From the NCBI RefSeq assembly GCF_000018305.1, contig NC_009954.1:1500001-1532000 (forward strand): a stretch of 32,000 nucleotides of DNA, written 5' to 3'. Positions 13,202 to 23,632 of the stretch are shown one piece after another. Position 1 is the first letter of the stretch, and each line of letters opens with the position of its first letter. The notes under the pieces are model-generated. The model was not told where the DNA came from. It did not search any database and worked only from the letters and a program-made list of their open reading frames with translations. The stretch comes from Caldivirga maquilingensis IC-167. GTDB lineage: Archaea > Thermoproteota > Thermoprotei > Thermoproteales > Thermocladiaceae. Made by a program: the position numbers and the translations under genes.

Positions 13202-13612
13202 ATGTTCACTTCCCTCAAGGAGGCCCAGTTACTGGTTAAGGAATTCCTAAGTAGGAGTATTGATAATGTTGGCTTAAGTCTCATTTCAACAATTAGGAGG
13301 AGGGCTATTAGGCTTAACGCGTGGTGGAGGCTTAACCCAATTAAGAGGGGCCTCCTTGAGGCGGCTTTAACCTACATGAGGCGTGGGGGTTCATTTAAGT
13401 CGAGGATTGCCTTAACCATGATTAAGGATGCCGTGGTGGATGCCTTAACAATAATACTCACAGGCAGCATCAGGTTCATGGCCTACGTAGTGGGGTTAAG
13501 GTTAATGAGTAGGCTTAGCCACATGCCCCACGCCTTAAAGTCCTGGGAATTAATCATACTGGGTATACAATGGTTAAACACACCCCTAATATACAGAGCA
13601 CCATTAATCTAA
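13202..13612 (+). CDS. Hypothetical protein, 10 nt upstream of archaeal ATPase paralog 2
   Basis: 136-aa basic, helical ORF. I recognise no motif. It has a good promoter context and is tightly spaced from the next gene. Confidence 0.45.
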   Translation: MFTSLKEAQLLVKEFLSRSIDNVGLSLISTIRRRAIRLNAWWRLNPIKRGLLEAALTYMRRGGSFKSRIALTMIKDAVVDALTIILTGSIRFMAYVVGLRLMSRLSHMPHALKSWELIILGIQWLNTPLIYRAPLI

Positions 13613-13622
13613 GCCATGCAAA

Positions 13623-14645
13623 ATGAGGCGCATTAAGCTAAGATTCTCAGGGCAGGAGATTGAATTCACAGACCGTGAAGTAGCCATTAGGCAGATTGAG
13701 AAATTGGCTGAGAAGGGTACGTGGAACCCAGTAGTCATATACGGGCCTGAGGGTTGCGGTAAGTCCGCGTTCTTAAAGCAAGCTGTTGAGGTTCTTGGGG
13801 AGTATGATTACTCTGTTGTTAAGGTAAGTCCACTTGAGGATGAGTCCAATGAGAAGTTAAGGTACTCTGAGGAGTTGAGGGGATTGTTCAGGGACATAAT
13901 GACCCGCATACCCACCCCCTTCAATGATGCGTCAGCCTTAATTGACATAGCTATCTCACTACTCTACGATGTGGTGAGGAGGAGGATTAGGCGAAAAATA
14001 GCCCTACTAGCCGATGACGTATTCCAGGCCATTGGCCTAGACAAGGCAGAACTACTAGTTAAAAGACTCCTAAACATGATAGAGTACTCATCGGTTGATT
14101 ATGAAAGGATTGTGGTGATAGTGGCCACAAGTGAGGGGGTGACTTGGGGGCGTATTGGGCGTCATAGGTGGGCTGAGATAATGGCAATGTGGAACATGCC
14201 CAGGGAGGGGTTTGGGAAGCTTTACAACGCATTGCCTGGGCCGAAACCACCATTTGAGGAAGTATGGAGGTGGACGGGCGGGAACCCTAAGGCATTGGAA
14301 ATGCTGTATAAGAAGGGATGGGATATAAATAATGTGGTGAATGAAGTAATCTTTCAACGTAAAGTAACGGAGCTAGTAAGTCAGCTGAACGAGACGGAAA
14401 AGGAGATACTGGAGCAGGCATTGGAGGATCCAGACGTATTACTGAGAAGAATCCGCGATGGAGAAAAACTACTGAACACGCTAATAGACATGAACCTCGT
14501 ATTGAGAGTGCCTGAATTCAGGACTGAGTACTTATGGGTCGACCAACCACCACCTGAGAGGGATCTTGGACTCGGCATTGGCAGGTACTACACGTGGCAG
14601 ACGCCGCTGCACAGGGAGGCTGTGAGGAGAGCCTTGGAAAACTGA
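13623..14645 (+). CDS. Archaeal ATPase family protein (PF01637-like), paralog 2
   Basis: 340 aa. Walker A is YGPEGCGKSAFL and Walker B is IALLADDVFQ. VATSEG and the LGIGRYYTWQTPLHREAVRRAL tail are present. Confidence 0.85.
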   Translation: MRRIKLRFSGQEIEFTDREVAIRQIEKLAEKGTWNPVVIYGPEGCGKSAFLKQAVEVLGEYDYSVVKVSPLEDESNEKLRYSEELRGLFRDIMTRIPTPFNDASALIDIAISLLYDVVRRRIRRKIALLADDVFQAIGLDKAELLVKRLLNMIEYSSVDYERIVVIVATSEGVTWGRIGRHRWAEIMAMWNMPREGFGKLYNALPGPKPPFEEVWRWTGGNPKALEMLYKKGWDINNVVNEVIFQRKVTELVSQLNETEKEILEQALEDPDVLLRRIRDGEKLLNTLIDMNLVLRVPEFRTEYLWVDQPPPERDLGLGIGRYYTWQTPLHREAVRRALEN

Positions 14646-14800
14646 ACATGTTAACGCTAATTCATGGATTATTAAATGAGAGTAATGTGGAGTACACTGT
14701 TCAGTTTAACCATAGCCCTCAAGTACTAGTTAAAGTAATTGAATCAAGTCATGTTGCAGTACACTACCATTCCTAAGGAAATAGAATTAGACTATTTAGA

Positions 14801-15226
14801 GTGAGCGGCGAGTACCCTGCTATTCTTAGGAGGAGGGCCGAGGCCATGCTGGCACTAGCTCAGAGGTTACTGAATGAGGGTGAGTATGATCTGGCAGTAC
14901 TCAATGCGGAGTACGCAGCACAACTATACCTCAAAAGCCTACTCTATAGGTTAACTGGGGAGGAGTGGCGAGGGCACGGTATACGTGAACTCCTTGGGGC
15001 ACTGGCCGTGGCGTTAAAAAACCTAAACCAGGATGAAGGGGCTGATGAGGTGGCGGAGTACGTTAGGAGGTATAGGGCGTATCTAGCGGAGTTGGAGGAG
15101 GGGCATGTTAGGTCCGTGTACGGTGTTTACAGCTACGGGAGGGACCAGGCGGAGGCCCTGGTCTCCACGGCAGGAAACCTCATAAGCTTCCTCCAAAAAA
15201 TAGAGAGGGGGGTTTTCGGCGAATGA
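14801..15226 (+). CDS. HEPN domain protein (PF05168 type), partner of the downstream minimal nucleotidyltransferase
   Basis: 141 aa. LNEGEYDLAVLNAEYAAQLYLKSLLYRLTG...GHGIRELL and LEEGHVRSVYG...DQAEALV fit the HEPN four-helix pattern. No canonical Rx4-6H motif is visible. It starts at a GTG and has an ATGA overlap with the next gene. Confidence 0.7.
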   Translation: MSGEYPAILRRRAEAMLALAQRLLNEGEYDLAVLNAEYAAQLYLKSLLYRLTGEEWRGHGIRELLGALAVALKNLNQDEGADEVAEYVRRYRAYLAELEEGHVRSVYGVYSYGRDQAEALVSTAGNLISFLQKIERGVFGE

Positions 15227-15552
15227 TGGATGAGAGGTTAAGCATGCTCAGGGAGTGGAGGGAATGGGCGAGGGCGGTGGCGGAGGCGGTGAAGAGGGTT
15301 AGGGGGGATGCGGAGGTTTACGTAATTGGGGGTGCAGTCGAGGGTAGGCTTACGGTACTAAGCGACATAGATGTACTCATAGCCCTACCACAAAGCCCAA
15401 GCCTCCAGGAGGCTGCAAAACTAAGGGCAGAGGTATGGGTTGAGATGGAGAGGATGGGACTACCACCACACTTACCAATAGAGCTGCACATAATAGGTAC
15501 GGAACAACTAGCCAGGTACATCAAGGGGAAGCCCGTGGTGAGGTTAGCGTAG
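15223..15552 (+). CDS. Minimal nucleotidyltransferase (MNT, Pol-beta superfamily)
   Basis: 109 aa. VYVIGGAVEGRLTVLSDIDVLIA matches the G[GS]x9-13DxD motif. The stop codon lies 1 nt before the start of ATPase paralog 3. Confidence 0.8.
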   Translation: MMDERLSMLREWREWARAVAEAVKRVRGDAEVYVIGGAVEGRLTVLSDIDVLIALPQSPSLQEAAKLRAEVWVEMERMGLPPHLPIELHIIGTEQLARYIKGKPVVRLA

Positions 15553-15553
15553 C

Positions 15554-16579
15554 ATGAAGCGGGTAAAACTCAGGTTTGCGGACCGTGAGGTGGAGTTCGT
15601 GGATAGGGAGGTGGCAATAAGGCAAATTGAGGAATTGGCTGGAAAAGGCACATGGTGGCCCCTGGTAATCTACGGGCCTGAGGGTTGCGGGAAATCAGCA
15701 CTCCTTAAACAAGCCATTGAGGTGCTTAGAGAATATGGTTACGAAGTTTCATACATAAGCCCACTGTCCAGGTCTGGGGAGGATAGGTTCACCCTCACAG
15801 AGGGATTGAGGCGGTTAGTAACGGGCGTTGGCTCACTGCTAATTGGCGATGCATCAAGACTGATTAACATAGCCGTGGAGTTACTCTATGACGCGGTCAG
15901 GAAAAGGCTCACAGGGAGGATAGCCTTATTAGCCGATGATGTCTTCCAAGCCATTGGACTAGATAAAGCGGAATTGCTCGTAAAGGGACTACTAAACATG
16001 GTAGAGTACCCATCAGTTGATTATGAGAAAATCGTCATACTCGTATCCTCAAGTGAAGGAATAACCTGGGAACGTATTGGGCGTCATAGGTGGGCTGAGA
16101 TAAAGATCATGTGGAGCATGCCCAAGGAGGGGTTTAGGCAATTATATGAGCAAGTACCGGGACCAAAGCCGGACTTTGAACAAGTATGGAGATGGACTGG
16201 TGGAAACCCAGAAATGTTAGAGAGACTCTATGGGGCAGGCTGGGACATTAACGGCATAATCAACGACATGATTAAGGACAGGAAACTAGACATTATGGTG
16301 AAAACCCTAGACAGGGAGCAGGTGCAGATACTAAGGCGGGCCATTGAGGACCCAGATGTGATTTATGATGAGGCGGCTAGGGCTATGCCGCTAATGGATA
16401 AATTAATCGAGAATAACCTAATCATCAGGATATGGTACAGGGAGCAAAGGGTGTGGATCGATCAACCACCTGAAAAAGACCCAGAACTGGGCATAGGCAC
16501 CCACTTCGCCTGGCAGACGCCAATGCACAGGGAGGCCGTGAGGAGGGTGCTGGGCAATGAACTTGAAAGGCATAGATGA
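15554..16579 (+). CDS. Archaeal ATPase family protein (PF01637-like), paralog 3
   Basis: 341 aa. It has YGPEGCGKSALL, IALLADDVFQ and LGIGTHFAWQTPMHREAVRRVL. It shares a 31-nt identical tract with paralog 2. Confidence 0.85.
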   Translation: MKRVKLRFADREVEFVDREVAIRQIEELAGKGTWWPLVIYGPEGCGKSALLKQAIEVLREYGYEVSYISPLSRSGEDRFTLTEGLRRLVTGVGSLLIGDASRLINIAVELLYDAVRKRLTGRIALLADDVFQAIGLDKAELLVKGLLNMVEYPSVDYEKIVILVSSSEGITWERIGRHRWAEIKIMWSMPKEGFRQLYEQVPGPKPDFEQVWRWTGGNPEMLERLYGAGWDINGIINDMIKDRKLDIMVKTLDREQVQILRRAIEDPDVIYDEAARAMPLMDKLIENNLIIRIWYREQRVWIDQPPEKDPELGIGTHFAWQTPMHREAVRRVLGNELERHR

Positions 16580-16967
16580 AAACTACGTGACAAGCCTAAT
16601 GAGGGACATTGAGGGTGTAATAAATGAAATCGTAAACATATCCTCAAAACCATTCAATGAACTATCCACTGCGGAGAAATACGCAATTAGATACGGCATA
16701 ATAGTAATCGCAGAAGCACTAACAGCCCTGGGCATCGAGCCCGAACCCCCAATCCACGCACTCAGGGTACTAAGGGACAACGGACTTTTAACCCTAAACG
16801 AGTGTGATGAACTCGAAAGGCTCATAAGGCTAAGGAACCTCCTCGTACATAGGTACTGGACCGTGGATGATAGGAGGATTTACGAAAACATAAAGGGAGA
16901 CTTCAAACACATACTCAACCTAATTGATAGATTAAAGAGGGTGCAAAACCATGACAACAGTATTTAA
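16557..16967 (+). CDS. hepT: DUF86/HepT-type HEPN toxin
   Basis: 136 aa. RLIRLRNLLVHRYWTVDDRRIYE contains the canonical Rx4H (RNLLVH) motif of DUF86 HEPN RNases. It overlaps the ATPase 3' end by 23 nt; an alternative start is ATG 16599. Confidence 0.8.
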   Translation: MNLKGIDENYVTSLMRDIEGVINEIVNISSKPFNELSTAEKYAIRYGIIVIAEALTALGIEPEPPIHALRVLRDNGLLTLNECDELERLIRLRNLLVHRYWTVDDRRIYENIKGDFKHILNLIDRLKRVQNHDNSI

Positions 16968-17340
16968 GTACTACAGGCTTAATGAGGAGGAGAGGAGGAG
17001 GGTCGCCGAGAAACTGAGGGAGGTCCTCGTAACCGAGGGGGTGAAGTTAGCAATAATCTTCGGAAGCTTCATAGAGCTAGGGAGCTTCAGGGACATAGAC
17101 ATCGCAGTATACCTAGAAGACCCAGGGGACCTTGACAAAATCCTAAGGCTAGGAGTAAAACTCGAAGACACAATCAAAATCCCGGTGGACGTAGTCCCAA
17201 TCCAGGAACTACCACCAAAGCTCAGGCATAAAATACTAACCAAGGGCATGGTCATACTAGAGGAACCAGGCATGTACGAGGCGCTATGGTCTCAAACAAT
17301 GGATGAATTAACAATAATGAACACAACAAACACCCACTGA
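16951..17340 (+). CDS. mntA: MntA-type nucleotidyltransferase antitoxin
   Basis: 129 aa. LAIIFGSFIELGSFRDIDIAVYL gives the GSx10DxD motif, and PVDVVPIQELPPKLRHKILTKG is also present. It overlaps hepT by 17 nt and stops 4 nt before ATPase paralog 4. Confidence 0.8.
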   Translation: MTTVFKYYRLNEEERRRVAEKLREVLVTEGVKLAIIFGSFIELGSFRDIDIAVYLEDPGDLDKILRLGVKLEDTIKIPVDVVPIQELPPKLRHKILTKGMVILEEPGMYEALWSQTMDELTIMNTTNTH

Positions 17341-17344
17341 GCAC

Positions 17345-18361
17345 ATGAAGAGGGTAAGGCTGAGGTTCGCTGGGCGCGAGGTGGAGTTCGTGGATAGAGA
17401 AGCCGCTATTAAGTGGATCGGGGAGCTGGCTGAGAGGGGCACCGGCTTAGTCCGCGTAGTTTATGGGCCCGAGGGTTGTGGTAAGTCTGCGTTGTTTAAG
17501 CAAGCCGTGGAGGTCCTCAGGGACCACGGCTACGAGGTCTCGTACATAAGCCCACTGTCTAGAGCCGATGAGGACAGGCTAATCCTCACCGAGGGGCTTA
17601 GGAAATTGTTCGTGGACCTTGGGTCCGTCTTCGTTGGTGACGCAGCAAGACTAATCGACACAGCCGTGAAATTGCTATACGACGCAGTGAGGAGGAGGCT
17701 TACAGGGAGGATAGCCCTACTCGCCGATGACGTATTCCAAGCAGTAGGGCTGGACAAAGCTGAGCTGTTAGTCAAAGGATTCCTAAACATGATAGAGTAC
17801 CCGCCGGTTGATTATGAGAAGATAGTCGTAATAGTGGCGTCGAGCGAAGGCGTCACAAGGGGGAGAGTGGGTAGGCACAGGTGGGCGTTTTTACACATCA
17901 TGTGGAACATGCCCAGGGAAGGCTTCGAGAAACTCTACGAGGAAATACCTGGGCCAAAGCCCCCGTTTGAAGACGTGTGGAAATGGACCGGTGGGAACCC
18001 CAAGGCGCTGGAAACCCTCTGGGAATTAAACTGGGACGTAGACAGATACGTAGACAACGTGATAAAGTCGAGAGAGCTTATGAAAATGGCGGCGGAGCTA
18101 AGCAGCGCAGAAACCGAAATACTGACACAGTCGCTGGATGACCCGGACGTCCTCTTAAAACGGTACAGGGAGGCCAAGGGACTCGTGCAGAGACTTATAG
18201 AGAACAACTTGATAATAGAGATATGGAAAAGGGACCAGGACTGGGTGGACGTGCCGCCGCCCGAGAGGGATCCCGAGCTGGGCATCGGAAAATACTTCGC
18301 CTGGCAAACACCAATGCACAGGGAAGTGGTAAAGAGGGTACTCGAGGAAACAAAAACATAA
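17345..18361 (+). CDS. Archaeal ATPase family protein (PF01637-like), paralog 4
   Basis: 338 aa. It has YGPEGCGKSALF, IALLADDVFQ and LGIGKYFAWQTPMHREVVKRVL. The 5' end is about 60% GC by hand count. Confidence 0.85.
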   Translation: MKRVRLRFAGREVEFVDREAAIKWIGELAERGTGLVRVVYGPEGCGKSALFKQAVEVLRDHGYEVSYISPLSRADEDRLILTEGLRKLFVDLGSVFVGDAARLIDTAVKLLYDAVRRRLTGRIALLADDVFQAVGLDKAELLVKGFLNMIEYPPVDYEKIVVIVASSEGVTRGRVGRHRWAFLHIMWNMPREGFEKLYEEIPGPKPPFEDVWKWTGGNPKALETLWELNWDVDRYVDNVIKSRELMKMAAELSSAETEILTQSLDDPDVLLKRYREAKGLVQRLIENNLIIEIWKRDQDWVDVPPPERDPELGIGKYFAWQTPMHREVVKRVLEETKT

Positions 18362-18383
18362 ACCCCCACACAACCAAACACAC

Positions 18384-18941
18384 ATGGCAACCATAACAAT
18401 ACCCAAGAAACTATACGAAGCACTAAGGAAACACGGAATAGACGTAGAGACAAAGGCAATTGAGGCACTACTAAAAGAAGCCCAACTAGACCCCAATGAA
18501 GAAGCCGAGATACACCTAGAACTAGCACAAAAACTCCTCAATGAAGGCGAAGCACTGATCGAGAAGGACCCCATACAAGCAGGCGAGAAGCTGTATAAGG
18601 CGGCCGAGGAAAGCGTCAAGGCGCTAGCCATACACTACAACCTAAAGGACATACTCGAAAAAGCGAGAGATAGAGGTAGATGGACAGTTACGGAGCTCGA
18701 AAAAGCAGTCCTCCAGATCTCGAGCAGAGCCGGCGAGTGGTTCAGAAGAGCCTGGGACGCAGCATGGACACTACATGTATGGGGATTCCACGAAGCAAAA
18801 TTCGACAGCGAGGACGTGAGGGAGAGGGAGCCCGACATTAAGAGAATAATTGAGGAGGCGATAAAAGCGATAGGCAGGGACGGGGAGAACAAAGACTTTA
18901 AAGACACCACGGACAATAAACACAGTGAAACTACACATTAA
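18384..18941 (+). CDS. PaREP1-like protein (archaeal PaREP1/PaREP8 family, HEPN-clan-like helical protein)
   Basis: 185 aa. EAEIHLELAQKLLNEGEALIEKDPIQAGEKLYKAAEESVKALA...RGRWTV...WFRRAWDAAWTLHVWGFHEAKFDSEDV resembles my recollection of the PaREP1 consensus. No Rx4-6H motif is visible. Confidence 0.55.
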   Translation: MATITIPKKLYEALRKHGIDVETKAIEALLKEAQLDPNEEAEIHLELAQKLLNEGEALIEKDPIQAGEKLYKAAEESVKALAIHYNLKDILEKARDRGRWTVTELEKAVLQISSRAGEWFRRAWDAAWTLHVWGFHEAKFDSEDVREREPDIKRIIEEAIKAIGRDGENKDFKDTTDNKHSETTH

Positions 18942-19848
18942 GAACTGGAGAAGCATAGAGGAAGTAGAGATAGAACTAAAGCCAGTAACAATAATCATGG
19001 GGCCAAACGACGCAGGGAAATCAAGCCTCGCATACGCACCGTACTTCCTAACAAAAACCATCAAGTGGAGAGACGCAAACAAAGTACTAAAATTACTATA
19101 CGGCACAGAACTAAACAACATCGCAAGGCACGAATACGACAAACCACAATACCCAGTAATAATCGAAGTAGACGGAGCACGCTTCAAGGCTCAAAACCCC
19201 AACGATGTAAAGAAAGCCGACATAGAGATAGCTGGGGAAAGTCCCTGGAACGACGGCTACCTACTACCATCGGGAAGGCTTACCTTCATGAAAATGCTAC
19301 GAATAGTGCCTAGAATCCTCAGACAGATAACAAGAACACGAGACTATTCAGCATTTCCACCACCGATGTACCTATTCCTCGATGATTTAGTGAGGATTCA
19401 CGGGATTGGCCCCCTACTACTGGAGCATGAACTAACCGAGTACACAGACCCATTTGCAAAAGCAAAACTACCACTAAACCTAGCACCAGACGGAACCACA
19501 GACCACTCACTAATAAACCTCTTCATAAACAACGTCCAGGAAGGCAGCCTACTAATCATCGAGGAACCAGAAATACACAAAAACCCAACCCTAGTGATAG
19601 AACTCACAAGACAAATAACACAGGAAGCAATAAACAAAAAACTAACAATAATAATAACAACACACAGCGACATAATACCACAAACAATAGCCAAAACCGT
19701 GGAAGAAGGCAAAACAAAGCCGAACAACGTAGCAATCTACTACCTAGAGAGAAAACCCTGGACACAGGCAAGGGAACTAAAGATCCACGAAGACGGCACA
19801 ATAGAGGAACTACCAGACGTGGAGAAAATAATCACGGAATTATTCTAA
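18925..19848 (+). CDS. Compact ABC/SMC-type ATPase (AAA_15/AAA_21-like, no coiled coil)
   Basis: 307 aa. NWRSIEEVEIELKPVTIIMGPNDAGKSSL gives the N-terminal strand and Walker A. LAPDGTTDHSLINL is signature-like. LLIIEEPEIHKNPTLV gives Walker B and the EEPE.h.hP motif typical of AAA_21. IIITTHSD is the H-loop. It overlaps the upstream gene by 17 nt. Confidence 0.7.
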   Translation: MKLHIKNWRSIEEVEIELKPVTIIMGPNDAGKSSLAYAPYFLTKTIKWRDANKVLKLLYGTELNNIARHEYDKPQYPVIIEVDGARFKAQNPNDVKKADIEIAGESPWNDGYLLPSGRLTFMKMLRIVPRILRQITRTRDYSAFPPPMYLFLDDLVRIHGIGPLLLEHELTEYTDPFAKAKLPLNLAPDGTTDHSLINLFINNVQEGSLLIIEEPEIHKNPTLVIELTRQITQEAINKKLTIIITTHSDIIPQTIAKTVEEGKTKPNNVAIYYLERKPWTQARELKIHEDGTIEELPDVEKIITELF

Positions 19849-19849
19849 C

Positions 19850-20404
19850 ATGACCCTACACGTAATCCTAGACCACTCAGCACTCATACCCTGCGGAGAC
19901 AAGCCAAAGGAGGAGAAAGAGGCGATAAGAGAGATCATGAATAGGATCATGGACATAGACGTAACATGGCACGTAACCGGATACTACCTTAAAGTACTAA
20001 ACACGGTACTCAACAAAAACCTAAAGAACCACCACCCACTCCCCAGGTTACTAGCATCATTAGAAAGAACAAAAAGATACCTCCTGGAACTCTCAAGGAG
20101 CAAACAAATTATATGCAAACCACGCAGGCTTAAAAGCTTAAAAATACACGTAATAGCAAGGAAGGCCTCGGAAAGGGTAGAGATACCCCATAGCGAAAGA
20201 CTAAACGAGATAAACAACGAAGACGTAGAAATAATCGCAATAGGATTGACAATTGCAGAAAGAATAAAAGGCGAAAAACCAGTGTACATAGTCACGACAG
20301 ACACAAAACTTGAAGAAGCCATAGATGAACTAGAGAAACTAGGAATAAAAGAATTAAAGGCAATAACACCAAGCAAATTATTAGAAGAATTACCAAAACA
20401 ATGA
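19850..20404 (+). CDS. PIN-like domain protein (putative nuclease partner of the ABC-type ATPase)
   Basis: 184 aa. It has an N-terminal HVILDHSAL (strand plus Asp), internal acidic positions (EEKEAIRE, NEDVEIIAIGL) and a C-terminal VYIVTTDTKLEEA, matching the spacing of the PIN acidic quartet by eye. It starts 1 nt after the ATPase stop. Confidence 0.5.
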   Translation: MTLHVILDHSALIPCGDKPKEEKEAIREIMNRIMDIDVTWHVTGYYLKVLNTVLNKNLKNHHPLPRLLASLERTKRYLLELSRSKQIICKPRRLKSLKIHVIARKASERVEIPHSERLNEINNEDVEIIAIGLTIAERIKGEKPVYIVTTDTKLEEAIDELEKLGIKELKAITPSKLLEELPKQ

Positions 20405-20416
20405 AAGCATAGAAGC

Positions 20417-21508
20417 ATGAGGATAGTACACGTAGCACCATTTTATAAACCGGTAATAGGCGGCGTGGAGGAGGTAGTGCAAAGAATAGCGGAGTACACA
20501 GCAGCTAGGGGGCATGAGGTACACGTAATCACATACAATAGGCTCAGGACAGGAGGCAAAGGTGCACTACCAAGGGAGGAATGGATCAATGGGGTGCATG
20601 TAATAAGGCTGAAACCAAACTTAACATGGAGTCACGGAACATACAGTAGGGAACTACCTGAAGTACTTAGGAAACTAAAGCCAGACCTAGTCCATGTGCA
20701 CGTGTGGAGGCACCCACATGTAATCCAGGTGGCAAGGCTAAGGAGGGAGATGGGATTCAAAGCGATACTGCATGGTCATGCACCATTCCATAAACTAAAC
20801 CAAGTGGGGCCAATAACCTGGACATATTATAAACTCGTAGACACAACGCTAAGAAGCATCCTAAAGAATTACGACACATACATAGCATTAACGAAACATG
20901 AAGCAGAAACAATAAGGAGAATGGGACTAGAAGAAGACAAAATAATGGTAATACCGAATGGAATAAACCAGGATCAATGCATACTAAGCAATGAAAGAGA
21001 GGACATGGTACTTTACCTGGGTAGAATCAGTAAGGTAAAGAACATTGAATTACTAGTAAAGGCCGCGAAATACATAAAGCATGCACAATTAGTAATTGCA
21101 GGGCCAGATGAAGGACTAATAAATACAATACTACAATATGCAGGAAAACACAACATAGAAGTAAAGTATCTAGGCGCAGTGAGTGAGGAAAAGAAACATG
21201 AATTATACCTAAAAGCCAAGGCCTATGCACTACCATCAATATATGAACCATTTGGAATAACACTACTCGAAGCAGGAATACACGCAACACCAAGCGTGAT
21301 AACGGGGAATGGGGGACAAGTCTACGCAGCACCACCAGGTAAGGCAAGCCTATGGGCAGAACCAAAGCCGGAGAAATACGCTGAAGCCATCATACAACTG
21401 CTAACCGACCAAGAGCTACATAGGAGATTAAGCCAAGGCGCTCTTCAGCACGCTGAACAACACCTATGGAGCAAAATACTACCAAGGTACGAGGAAATAT
21501 ATGGCTAA
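20417..21508 (+). CDS. Glycosyltransferase family 4 (GT-B, Glyco_trans_4 + Glycos_transf_1)
   Basis: 363 aa. The N-terminus is MRIVHVAPFYKPVIGGVEEVV...GHEVHVIT. The C-terminal motif is PSIYEPFGITLLEAGIHATPSVIT (Ex7E). Confidence 0.85.
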   Translation: MRIVHVAPFYKPVIGGVEEVVQRIAEYTAARGHEVHVITYNRLRTGGKGALPREEWINGVHVIRLKPNLTWSHGTYSRELPEVLRKLKPDLVHVHVWRHPHVIQVARLRREMGFKAILHGHAPFHKLNQVGPITWTYYKLVDTTLRSILKNYDTYIALTKHEAETIRRMGLEEDKIMVIPNGINQDQCILSNEREDMVLYLGRISKVKNIELLVKAAKYIKHAQLVIAGPDEGLINTILQYAGKHNIEVKYLGAVSEEKKHELYLKAKAYALPSIYEPFGITLLEAGIHATPSVITGNGGQVYAAPPGKASLWAEPKPEKYAEAIIQLLTDQELHRRLSQGALQHAEQHLWSKILPRYEEIYG

Positions 21509-22493
21509 ACCATTAATCAGTGTAGTAATTACGGCATATAATAGGAGGGAGTACTTAAGGTACGCTGTTAAATCGGTGCTAAACCAAACCTTGGATAGAA
21601 ACTTCTATGAAGTAATAGTCATAAAGAACTTCGAAGACTCATACACAGACAAATTAATTGAAGGAGTGGGTAGAACAATAAACGTAGACATAGCATCAAT
21701 AGGCGCAAAAATAGCCCTGGGAATAAGGGAGTCTGAGGGTGAAGTGGTGGCATTCCTTGAAGATGACGACTTATGGCATAGTAGGAAGCTAGAGCATGTA
21801 GCCGAGGCATTCAGAAATAACAATGACCTAATGTACTACCACCACAATACATACGCAATAGATAAATACGGAAACATAATACATGACTCGCTCATTGAGA
21901 GGACGAACATAAATAATTACGTATATGCCAGCAACGAAGATGAGAAAATGAAAGTATTCAAACAGTATGGTTGGGGCCTTGGTCTCAGGAACAGCTCCAT
22001 AGCCGTAAGAAGGGATGTATACGAAAAATACGCACCTATAATAAGACTCCTCCCAGATGCGGTGGATGTGGCACTATACCTGGTAGCGTTAAGCGTAAAG
22101 GGTTCAATAATTCATGAACCACGGAGATTAATGTTCTTTAGAATACACGAGACAAACACAAGTAGCGTGAGATTCGCACCACAGAGTGAAAGGCTACATA
22201 GGGTAGCCGTGAACTCTGTAAAACATACCATAGCAAGATATGCACTAGCAACCATCGCCAGGCACATAAAGCCCCAACTAACCAGATACGCAGGCTATGA
22301 CGAAGCATCAATAGTAGCGGGCATATTAGCAAATTGGAGGGGATACACGGCAGTAATGAGTTTAAATTTATTAAATCATTGTAAATCACTAACATGCCTA
22401 GCAACGGCAATACTAGGCATTATAAACACAATAAGCCCAGAACTAACGAAGAGAATCATCACACTATACTACACTAAAGGATTCAGACTCTAA
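21501..22493 (+). CDS. Glycosyltransferase family 2 (GT-A)
   Basis: 330 aa. It has ISVVITAYNRREYLRYAVKSVLNQT and the DxD motif AFLEDDDLW. It overlaps the upstream gene by 8 nt. Confidence 0.85.
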   Translation: MAKPLISVVITAYNRREYLRYAVKSVLNQTLDRNFYEVIVIKNFEDSYTDKLIEGVGRTINVDIASIGAKIALGIRESEGEVVAFLEDDDLWHSRKLEHVAEAFRNNNDLMYYHHNTYAIDKYGNIIHDSLIERTNINNYVYASNEDEKMKVFKQYGWGLGLRNSSIAVRRDVYEKYAPIIRLLPDAVDVALYLVALSVKGSIIHEPRRLMFFRIHETNTSSVRFAPQSERLHRVAVNSVKHTIARYALATIARHIKPQLTRYAGYDEASIVAGILANWRGYTAVMSLNLLNHCKSLTCLATAILGIINTISPELTKRIITLYYTKGFRL

Positions 22494-23632
22494 TGATAAT
22501 AGTACACACGCATCATCACTACTGGCCGGTAGCGGGAGGAATAGAAAATGCAATTAAATACCTCGCCGAGGAACAGGCAAAACTTGGTCACGAGGTGCAC
22601 ATAGTAACGGGCACCTATGGAGCCCAGAAAAGACCTAGGGAGGAAGAAATAAACGGTGTGCACGTACATAGAATTAAGGCGTGGAGATTAGGCTACCCAG
22701 ACCTAACAATACCAAGGGAAACACCTAGGGAACTGCTCAAGAGGGCTGACGTGATTCATGCTCACTCACAAAACAGCTTATTCTCAGTGAGAATAGCCCA
22801 GGAGGCACATGAGCTAGGTGTTAAGGTAGCCATACACTACATGGCTGTCGACACCCTCCAAACACACCCAAACCCAGCCATAAGGCTCCTTGGACCAATA
22901 TACGCCAGGAGAAACCTAGAAATGGCAAAGGAAATAGCGGACATACACCTAGCAAGAAGCAAAAGGGACGTAGAAAAACTAAGAAAATACGGAATACAAG
23001 CACACTACCTACCAGACGCAATACCAAAACACTACCTAACAAAACCCAAAGCAGACCCAGAGGAATTCAGGAGGAAATACGGAATAACACAGGACAAACT
23101 ATTCATATACATAGGAAGAATACACAAACTCAAGGGACCACACGTACTAGTCAAGGCGCTACCATACCTAAGCAACGACATAGCAATAATAATGGCAGGA
23201 CCAGACAACGGATACCTAAAACAAACCCTAGAACTAGCCAATAAACTACACGTGAAAGACAGACTATATTACCTAGGCTACGTAGACGAAGATACAAAAA
23301 TAAACGCCATAGACGCATCAACGGCGCTAGTCCTACCATCAACCACAGACTATGTAGAGGTATACCCCATGACAATAACCGAGGCATGGGCAAGAGAAAA
23401 ACCAGTAATAGCCACAAACGTAGGAGGAATACCATACAGGGTAACACACGGCATAAACGGACTAATAATACCACCAAACAACCCACAGGAACTAGCCAAA
23501 GCAATACAACAACTAGCAAACAACCCAGAAAAGACACAACAAATGGGTAAGGAGGGTAAAAAGGAAATCAAGACATGGGACGAAATCGCAAAAGAAACCA
23601 TAAAAATATACAACACCACAAACAACCCATGA
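22493..23632 (+). CDS. Glycosyltransferase family 4
   Basis: 379 aa. It has MIIVHTHHHYWPVAGGIENAIKYL...GHEVHIVT and VEVYPMTITEAWAREKPVIATNVGGIPYRVTHGINGLII. The junction with the upstream gene is a TAATG overlap. Confidence 0.85.
   Translation: MIIVHTHHHYWPVAGGIENAIKYLAEEQAKLGHEVHIVTGTYGAQKRPREEEINGVHVHRIKAWRLGYPDLTIPRETPRELLKRADVIHAHSQNSLFSVRIAQEAHELGVKVAIHYMAVDTLQTHPNPAIRLLGPIYARRNLEMAKEIADIHLARSKRDVEKLRKYGIQAHYLPDAIPKHYLTKPKADPEEFRRKYGITQDKLFIYIGRIHKLKGPHVLVKALPYLSNDIAIIMAGPDNGYLKQTLELANKLHVKDRLYYLGYVDEDTKINAIDASTALVLPSTTDYVEVYPMTITEAWAREKPVIATNVGGIPYRVTHGINGLIIPPNNPQELAKAIQQLANNPEKTQQMGKEGKKEIKTWDEIAKETIKIYNTTNNP

Follow-up and report, generated by a model that had tools for sequence, protein, structure and literature searches.

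Dyads of an ATP-binding cassette (ABC) ATPase and a nuclease, such as PARIS, Septu, Gabija and Menshen, are a major theme in bacterial immunity. ABC ATPases of the AAA15/21 type are sensors which are paired with varied effectors (PMC11464382). The Menshen ATPase NsnB has an AAA_15 head of about 345 residues, a DUF3696 tail, an arginine in place of the Q-loop glutamine, and an altered signature and Walker B motif (PMC12065111). In AlphaFold 3 models, the PIN-like N-terminal domain of its partner NsnC sits between two DUF3696 tails of the NsnB tetramer, and all 35 families of this domain (inPIN) are inactive adaptors that bind NsnB (PMC12065111). Comparative genomics has also noted OLD-ABC ATPases whose partner is a PIN endoRNase instead of Toprim (10.1101/2025.10.09.681413, citing Krishnan et al. 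2020). Archaeal ABC-ATPase/nuclease dyads are almost unstudied, and there is no established Menshen mechanism. Here we analyse such a dyad from the chromosome of the crenarchaeon Caldivirga maquilingensis. The stretch of DNA studied, called the window below, comprises 32,000 nucleotides (NC_009954.1, positions 1,500,001 to 1,532,000). It contains three adjoining genes (18384-20404) which a first-pass annotation had read as a three-component defence system made of a PaREP1-like protein, a compact ABC-type ATPase and a PIN-like protein.

On balance we favour a pair over this trio: the unit would be a two-gene operon consisting of an NsnB-like ABC ATPase of the OLD family and a stand-alone PIN-like nuclease, which together form an accessory, mobile conflict module of thermophilic archaea. 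The three open reading frames (ORFs) are all on the plus strand and extend from 18384 to 18941 (185 amino acids), from 18925 to 19848 (307 amino acids) and from 19850 to 20404 (184 amino acids). The first two overlap by 17 nucleotides (18925-18941) and the last two are separated by a single nucleotide (19848/19850), so that the coordinates and spacing given in the first-pass annotation were correct. The features of the locus are as follows.

18925-19848, plus strand: first core gene, a compact OLD-family ABC ATPase, NsnB-like, 307 amino acids (Pfam, PADLOC, AlphaFold2/Foldseek).
19000-19023, plus strand: Walker A motif GPNDAGKS (residues 26-33); G26, G31, K32 and S33 are invariant in 26 homologues.
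19261-19278, plus strand: LLPSGR (residues 113-118); L113, L114, P115, S116 and R118 are invariant.
19483-19494, plus strand: signature-like APDG (residues 187-190; APDGT 187-191); D189 and G190 are invariant, P188 nearly so.
19549-19572, plus strand: Walker B motif LLIIEEPE (residues 209-216), with a strand at 209-213; L209, E213, E214, P215 and E216 are invariant.
19657-19671, plus strand: H-loop TTHSD (residues 245-249), after strand 241-246; T245 is invariant, T246, H247 and D249 nearly so.
19717-19845, plus strand: DUF3696-like tail, a C-terminal beta-hairpin with a terminal helix; candidate docking site for the partner.
19850-20404, plus strand: second core gene, a PIN-like putative nuclease of a small archaeal family, 184 amino acids.
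19871-19873, plus strand: Asp8 (LDHS) at the end of strand 3-7, predicted first PIN acidic position; D in 40/42 sequences, S10 in 39/42.
20222-20224, plus strand: Asp125 ([ED]-D-x-E) at the start of helix 123-138, predicted third PIN acidic position; D in 43/44, E/D124 in 42/44, E127 in 36/44.
20300-20302, plus strand: Asp151 (V-T-x-D) after strand 145-148, predicted fourth PIN acidic position; D in 43/44, T/S149 in 41/44.
18384-18941, plus strand: PaREP1 (HEPN-T clade) neighbour gene, outside the conserved module (Pfam PaREP1, PDB 2jpu/2q00).

For comparison, 34 related loci (L001-L034) were collected. The pair is carried by the 19 loci L001-L019; L020 is a degraded locus, and the six loci L024-L029 hold PaREP1 homologues only. 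Look-ups of close ATPase homologues contributed L021, L022 and L030-L034, and a viral scan L023. Removal of duplicates left 22 distinct loci carrying the ATPase, the window included. In every one of these the PIN-like gene directly follows the ATPase gene, and wherever both genes are intact the junction measures 1-12 nucleotides. The conservation of the neighbourhood, which the first-pass annotation had proposed to check for the trio, holds for these two genes and fails for PaREP1, as discussed below. According to the record titles, the pair occurs in Desulfurococcales, Pyrodictium, Pyrobaculum, Thermoprotei, Archaeoglobales, Nitrososphaeria, Bathyarchaeia and Ca. Methanodesulfokora; among 185,579 species genomes it was found at 15 loci. 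Its flanks are otherwise unrelated and include genes for a permease, DUF2240, an SF1 helicase, a nitroreductase, a metallo-beta-lactamase, a THUMP methyltransferase, GatB, an MFS transporter and a SpoU methylase. The two proteins have diverged together. Their pairwise identities co-vary over 12 loci (Pearson 0.84, Spearman 0.70), the PIN-like protein being the faster-evolving partner with a mean identity of 35% compared to 45% for the ATPase.

The pair is dispensable. In an Archaeoglobaceae locus (L020, 5538-5850) an internal deletion has left 82 codons of the ATPase gene and what appears to be the PIN-like C-terminus. On either side lie a metallo-beta-lactamase and a SpoU methylase gene, as with the intact pair in L014, L015 and L017, and the SpoU of L020 is 89% identical to that of L014. 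Elsewhere the PIN-like gene is frameshifted (L031-L034; L031 6026-6596, L033 3421-3981) or truncated (L008 1547-2179, L019 7210-7620), or the ATPase gene is split (L017 3915-4936, L018 1952-2970). Some of these cases are possibly assembly errors; L031/L032 and L033/L034 come from separate samples. Deletion and decay in several genomes, together with unrelated flanks and a patchy spread, are thus the behaviour of an accessory two-gene module that moves horizontally. The Archaeoglobaceae keep the gene order metallo-beta-lactamase, ATPase, PIN-like protein, SpoU rRNA methylase (L014 5342-8317; L015 5341-8351; L017 3199-6412), with the methylase gene overlapping the PIN-like gene by 4 nucleotides.

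The middle gene encodes an ABC ATPase of the OLD type (AAA_15/AAA_21). Its GTG start codon is credible, because the N-termini of 25 homologues line up with the initial residues, MKLHIKNWRSIEE. The assignment to small AAA_15/AAA_21 ATPases, made in the first-pass annotation, agrees with Pfam (AAA_15, E = 2.6e-19, 70.5 bits at a cut-off of 32.1; AAA_21, E = 8.5e-10, 39.6 bits at a cut-off of 27) and with the predicted structure. The AlphaFold2 model (predicted local distance difference test, pLDDT, 86.8; predicted template modelling score, pTM, 0.88) consists of a compact ABC head followed by a beta-hairpin and a terminal helix, and its top Foldseek match in the PDB is the OLD nuclease 6p74 (E = 8.8e-11). 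Further matches are the heads of retron Eco8, Rad50, SMC, GajA (8x5i, 1.4e-8) and PtuA (8sux, 5e-8). Among the PADLOC models NsnB matches the protein best (6.4e-25), followed by AriA (2.4e-21). The same order holds for the family: all 26 members tested match NsnB, which gives the best E-value of any PADLOC family (6.8e-27), and all match AriA, which is close behind (best E = 3e-24). The family comprises about 85 clusters.

A housekeeping identity of the RecF/Rad50/SMC type was considered and rejected, in accordance with the earlier view: the NCBIfam scores lie far below the cut-offs (RecF 24.2 against 172; Rad50 12-14 against 700-1087), and a coiled coil is absent from the model. The NCBIfam PtuA model gave 18 bits at a cut-off of 500. 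All ATPase motifs that had been named (GPNDAGKS, APDGT, Walker B and TTHSD) were found on invariant or nearly invariant columns. The stretch LLIIEEPEIHKNP corresponds to residues 209-221, where K219, N220 and P221 fall on such columns as well. APDG is located at the N-terminus of helix 191-203, about 20 residues ahead of Walker B. LLPSGR follows strand 111-114 and precedes the helical insert; judging by this position, Arg118 would occupy the place expected for the Q-loop glutamine. DUF3696 matches residues 265-298 of the Caldivirga protein with 18.4 bits (cut-off 22), and 10 of the 26 family members match it at E <= 0.01. This tail carries the conserved motifs YY..R..PWT and EDGT.E.LPD and, by analogy with the AlphaFold 3 models of NsnB-NsnC (PMC12065111), could be the part to which the partner docks.

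The last protein is most likely PIN-like, judging from sub-threshold profile matches and from the positions of its conserved residues. It is labelled 'PIN domain-containing protein' in UniRef, and no family model in Pfam, PADLOC (NsnC models included) or NCBIfam matches it above threshold. Its family is small, with 82 representatives at E <= 0.001 among 1.84 billion proteins and 12 matches in an indexed search. The landmarks on which the first reading was based (HVILDHSAL, NEDVEIIAIGL and IVTTDTKL) are all present. In the AlphaFold2 model (pLDDT 86, pTM 0.83) the elements follow each other in the order beta1, alpha, beta2, alpha, alpha, beta-hairpin, alpha, beta4, alpha, beta5, alpha. Conservation was assessed in 44 family members with a mean identity of 29%. 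Three of the four positions of the PIN acidic quartet are kept (D8, D125 and D151), and K18, C89 and H100 are also conserved across the family. Pfam matches among the 44 members were to DUF5615 (10 members), PIN_3 (7, best 4.9e-5) and PIN_4 (2), and to PIN_12, PIN and 5_3_exonuc_N in one member each; no other Pfam family recurred. DUF5615 aside, all of these are PIN or PIN-like families, and DUF5615 is presumably a member of the PIN clan. The recurrent NCBIfam matches were PRK12496 and the PIN-toxin model TIGR00305, the latter in three members. The matches to PIN_3 (PF13470) extend from end to end, residues 4-144 and 22-160 aligning to positions 2-114 of 115 and residues 5-138 to positions 1-105. 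Because the protein is a single domain that keeps its acidic residues, we predict that it is itself the nuclease, most likely an RNase.

The PIN-like family has an insert of about 60 residues (positions 60-120) which contains the conserved Cys89 and His100. In and around this insert, Cys15 (36/43), Cys89 (40/44), His100 (41/44) and often His62 are kept, and the Caldivirga protein has C15, H61, H62, C89 and H100. Judging by this conservation, the Cys and His residues may form a metal-binding site. A protein encoded outside the window (P0154, 2197 amino acids) matches positions 131-167 of the family profile in 13 separate stretches and is probably a repeat protein.

Several observations weigh against our reading. 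The basis for the PIN assignment is sub-threshold: the PIN_3 scores of the 10 members scanned singly reach at most 22.7 bits at a cut-off of 27. No acid is conserved at the second PIN acidic position, where an invariant Ser/Thr43 follows strand 2 instead of the glutamate. Foldseek searches of the model against the PDB and BFVD returned nothing at E <= 0.001, and a profile of the 44 members found nothing relevant among the PDB sequences. For the proposal that a PIN domain occupies the nuclease slot, this leaves a probable PIN-like character, three of the four acids at their predicted positions, and no significant structural match. Alignment with VapC by hhalign gave a probability of 0.2. Here the VapC side was a shallow alignment of 7 enterobacterial plasmid genes, its starting sequence being 100% identical to a Shigella gene; since the profile is so shallow and VapC is not the nearest PIN family, this result is uninformative and does not refute the assignment. 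In the ATPase, Walker B has EE instead of the usual DE. Moreover, two in-frame deletions in the helical insert around residues 140-175, where the pLDDT of the model is 60-74, leave the Caldivirga ATPase about 35 residues short of nearly all its relatives (307 versus about 340 amino acids), and a serine replaces the nearly invariant Cys10. Lacking these residues, this particular ATPase may be impaired. Finally, several loci (especially those of Archaeoglobaceae, Bathyarchaeia and Archaeoglobales) have housekeeping surroundings and no defence island, and a scan of viral contigs for the ATPase yielded a single weak and partial match (42 of 307 residues).

If the pair works as the described systems do, the following scheme can be drawn. 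By analogy with PARIS, Septu and the NsnB-NsnC complex of Menshen, the ATPase could oligomerise through its ABC head, with its DUF3696-like tails at the C-terminus holding the PIN-like protein. In response to a viral or stress cue, the binding or hydrolysis of ATP would change, upon which the PIN-like enzyme would be released or activated, parallel to AriA/AriB in PARIS (PMC11464382). By means of Asp8, Asp125 and Asp151 it would then cut RNA (tRNA, rRNA or mRNA), and growth of the infected cell would stop. The physical complex, the RNase activity, the trigger and the antiviral role are all carried over from the relatives in this scheme, and so would be the defence function which the first-pass annotation had proposed.

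In that annotation PaREP1 was a third component; as a HEPN-like protein it could be an added sensor or a second effector. We regard such a system as improbable. The assignment of the first protein is sound, with matches to Pfam PaREP1 (PF05942, E = 2.9e-35, 121 bits at a cut-off of 24.4) and to PDB 2jpu/2q00 (E = 3.3e-20) and a conserved LHVWGFHEAK motif. The family was placed in the HEPN-T clade by Anantharaman et al. (PMC3710099) and is, according to Makarova et al. (PMC3632139), expanded in crenarchaea without a link to MNT. A trio would agree with the overlap of 17 nucleotides on the same strand, with the PaREP1 genes found within a few kilobases of the pair in L021, L022, L033 and L034, and with traces of PaREP1 directly upstream of the pair in L021 and L022, from which it follows that the arrangement is older than C. 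maquilingensis. However, these traces are ruins. In L022 (1914-2290), where the gene has the same orientation as the ATPase gene, it is a pseudogene with in-frame stops and a frameshift, and in L021 (about 2380-2500) a remnant of about 37 residues is left after a deletion of about 290 nucleotides; the ATPase and PIN-like genes are intact in both, which represent one related lineage (about 84% DNA identity). Of the 21 other distinct loci, 19 have no PaREP1 gene ahead of the pair. When the three closest PaREP1 homologues were looked up (60-62% identity), all proved to be solitary genes with MNT-HEPN pairs, a GT2 gene or a TENA gene as neighbours, and the subfamily (382 homologues at E <= 1e-10) exceeds the families of the pair several times in size. 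These homologues are highly conserved and typically about 166 amino acids long among the 120 listed. The overlap itself is due to a C-terminal tail of 16-20 residues, RDGENKDFKDTTDNKHSETTH, which is present in the Caldivirga copy only and absent from the homologues. Furthermore, 12 of the 13 junctions between the 14 co-directional genes at 13202-23632 measure between -23 and +22 nucleotides, and clearly unrelated genes are joined just as tightly, for example the PIN-like gene and a glycosyltransferase gene. Tight spacing is thus the local norm and no argument for a functional trio. PaREP1 is a neighbour outside the module, which has degenerated at loci that keep an intact pair, and the idea that it is a system component has to be corrected. 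Probably, a gene from this large and mostly solitary crenarchaeal HEPN-T family landed beside the pair in one sub-lineage, and the pair would not need it. PaREP1 homologues share their N-terminal 35 or so residues (ITIPxKLxEEL.RRGID...IIDLL; residues 1-35, window 18384-18490), which lie outside the Pfam PaREP1 domain (residues 44-156) and may be a separate small domain.

The two genes could also form a toxin-antitoxin or addiction module, in which the ATPase neutralises a PIN-like toxin and which serves selfish persistence or a stress response. PIN domains are the commonest type II toxins, the pair sits among HEPN-MNT toxin-antitoxin modules, the annotation of AAA_21 mentions a relation to AbiEii/type IV toxin-antitoxin systems, and the frequent frameshifts that the PIN-like gene shows next to an intact ATPase (L031-L034) would agree with selection against toxicity. 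Yet an ABC ATPase of 340 residues would be an unusual antitoxin, its closest relatives are sensor or regulator subunits of immune systems, and the putative toxin gene comes downstream, as in PARIS, Septu and Menshen. We therefore think this rather unlikely, bearing in mind that it overlaps heavily with our own explanation, since abortive infection and toxin-antitoxin action differ mainly in their trigger. Still more doubtful is an adaptor role, in which the PIN-like protein would have lost catalysis as have the inPIN domains of NsnC (PMC12065111), all of which are inactive and bind NsnB. An unlinked effector or sensor would then be needed, for which the ATPase_2 (STAND-like) gene upstream of the pair in several Thermoproteota loci would be a candidate. 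The missing second acidic residue would agree with this, as would the location of ATPase_2, which precedes the pair in L002, L005, L031 and, weakly, L008, and lies one gene further upstream in the window. On the other hand, D8, D125, D151, E/D124 and T/S149 are each present in 93% or more of the members, although mean identity in the family is only 29%, and retention of this degree points to catalysis. In addition, no third gene is conserved outside Thermoproteota, ATPase_2 is not found beside the closest relatives of the ATPase (L021, L022 and L030), and its family is hugely expanded, with tandem copies in the window. A housekeeping role in RNA processing, ribosome maturation or DNA repair, with a Rad50/RecF/SMC-like ATPase and a processing nuclease, is the least credible of these explanations and very improbable. 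It could account for the metallo-beta-lactamase and overlapping SpoU genes around the Archaeoglobaceae pair and for the Rad50 and SMC heads among the structural matches. However, the RecF and Rad50 scores and the missing coiled coil contradict it, and so do the very patchy distribution, the deletion in L020, the pseudogenes in several genomes and flanks that change with almost every lineage.

The defence-island context noted in the first-pass annotation was found again, HEPN/MNT modules lying just upstream of the three ORFs. HEPN-MNT pairs and a second dyad of an ABC ATPase and a partner occur near the pair in the window, L002, L021, L022, L030, L031 and L033, and the setting often looks like a defence or toxin-antitoxin island. 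The window contains three tandem ATPase_2 paralogues (PF01637, STAND-like; 13202-18361) with 58-66% mutual identity. Two of them are each preceded by a HEPN/HepT and MNT pair (14801-15552 and 16557-17340), the remaining one by an unannotated ORF of 136 amino acids (13202-13612). L031/L032 show the same mix, three ATPase_2 genes and an MNT-HEPN fusion, and in L005 a HEPN-MNT pair is followed by an ATPase_2 fragment. HEPN-MNT-ATPase_2 may therefore be a recurrent cassette. As a third component of the module, ATPase_2 was rejected: because it is missing beside the closest relatives of the ATPase and outside Thermoproteota, we take it as island company. The second ABC ATPase, a different one (DUF2813/AAA_15/AAA_21, about 330-390 amino acids), adjoins the pair together with a small partner in five lineages (L002 6838-8459; L021 4684-6293 and L022 4412-6030, both on the minus strand; L030 587-2172; L033 43-1756). 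Its partner in L033 is DUF3226/OLD-Toprim-like; the other partners had no credible Pfam match.

Within the window no tRNA gene was found that could mark an integration site. A scan of the window for sigma-70 promoters and terminators remained at background level, this model not being applicable to archaea. Between 16000 and 24000 the plus strand has far more A than T (AT skew 0.27-0.50), which accounts for the long 'shadow' ORFs on the minus strand that overlap real genes.

How does the pair compare with the known systems? Menshen is the closest described system. NsnB is the top PADLOC match of the archaeal ATPase family, with AriA close behind, and the lengths agree (relatives of about 340 amino acids, NsnB profile of 345 positions). 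Both ATPases have an AAA_15 head, a C-terminal tail that in the archaeal proteins appears DUF3696-like, an arginine where the Q-loop glutamine is expected (the invariant LLPSxR of the archaeal proteins, if its position has been read correctly), and a non-canonical signature (archaeal APDG for LSGGQ) and Walker B (archaeal EEPE), and in both cases a PIN-like domain is encoded immediately downstream. However, neither the window nor any of the 22 loci has a gene for NsnA (ParB-DUF262); the genes upstream of the pair are those for PaREP1, ATPase_2, DUF4276, a helicase, a metallo-beta-lactamase and others. The archaeal partner is a stand-alone PIN-like protein of 185-200 amino acids without a C-terminal toxin or nuclease domain; it keeps the acidic residues which the inPIN domains of NsnC have lost, and the PADLOC NsnC models do not match it. 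Menshen, moreover, is catalogued in bacteria only. True membership in Menshen was rejected: NsnA and the effector domain at the C-terminus of NsnC are both missing, and the partner does not appear inactive.

PARIS is likewise a two-gene dyad in which an AAA_15/21 ATPase is followed by a small metal-dependent nuclease (a putative one in our case), AriA is the second-best PADLOC match, and the release or activation of an RNA-cutting effector proposed above is modelled on AriA/AriB (PMC11464382). In contrast to AriB, which is a Toprim/DUF4435 protein, the archaeal effector would be PIN-like: it has no Toprim/DUF4435 match, and its residue pattern is of the PIN type and not E...DxD. The archaeal ATPase is also shorter (about 340 against about 480 amino acids for AriA), and the pair does not appear to be borne by phages or satellites. 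Septu (PtuA with PtuB) and Gabija (the GajA ATPase-Toprim fusion with GajB) share structurally neighbouring ABC heads (PtuA and GajA) and the regulation of a nuclease by an ATPase, but their nucleases are of the HNH (PtuB) and Toprim folds and their ATPases are larger; an HNH match was not found in the PIN-like protein. Since the effector fold differs, the pair is neither PARIS nor Septu nor Gabija. VapC and PIN_3 proteins resemble the PIN-like partner in the co-linear, full-length PIN_3 matches and in the acids after strand 1, at the helix after strand 3 and after strand 4. They differ in that the scores are sub-threshold, an insert of about 60 residues is present, and no VapB-type antitoxin gene is found.

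Being small and compact (about 340 + 190 amino acids), thermostable and self-contained, the archaeal pair would be a tractable object for studying how an NsnB-type ATPase controls a PIN-like partner, and its PIN-like family, for which Pfam, PADLOC and NCBIfam have no model, joins the candidates for archaeal defence. The dyads of OLD-ABC ATPase and PIN reported before (10.1101/2025.10.09.681413) have the same general architecture; these are versions linked to BREX or restriction-modification systems, none of them yet studied by experiment. Together with Menshen NsnB-NsnC (PMC12065111) they show that the description of the combination as uncharacterised was overstated. The ATPase-plus-PIN architecture had already been noted, and the family is possibly included in Krishnan et al. 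2020. New are a clearly delimited archaeal family whose two genes are strictly syntenic, a partner family without a model, and the retention of presumed catalytic residues where the Menshen domain is inactive. This allows one to ask whether the PIN-like domain began as an effector. A more tentative interpretation, which we would not put above a possibility worth pursuing, is that Menshen and PARIS have in the pair a relative that is specific to archaea and independent of NsnA, a thermostable immune module with an ATPase-gated RNase, whose PIN-like fold may couple to the ATPase tail through an extra Cys/His metal site (C15, C89 and H100). The PIN-like domain would then still be the catalytic effector and would resemble an ancestral state from which the inactive inPIN adaptor of bacterial NsnC could have arisen.

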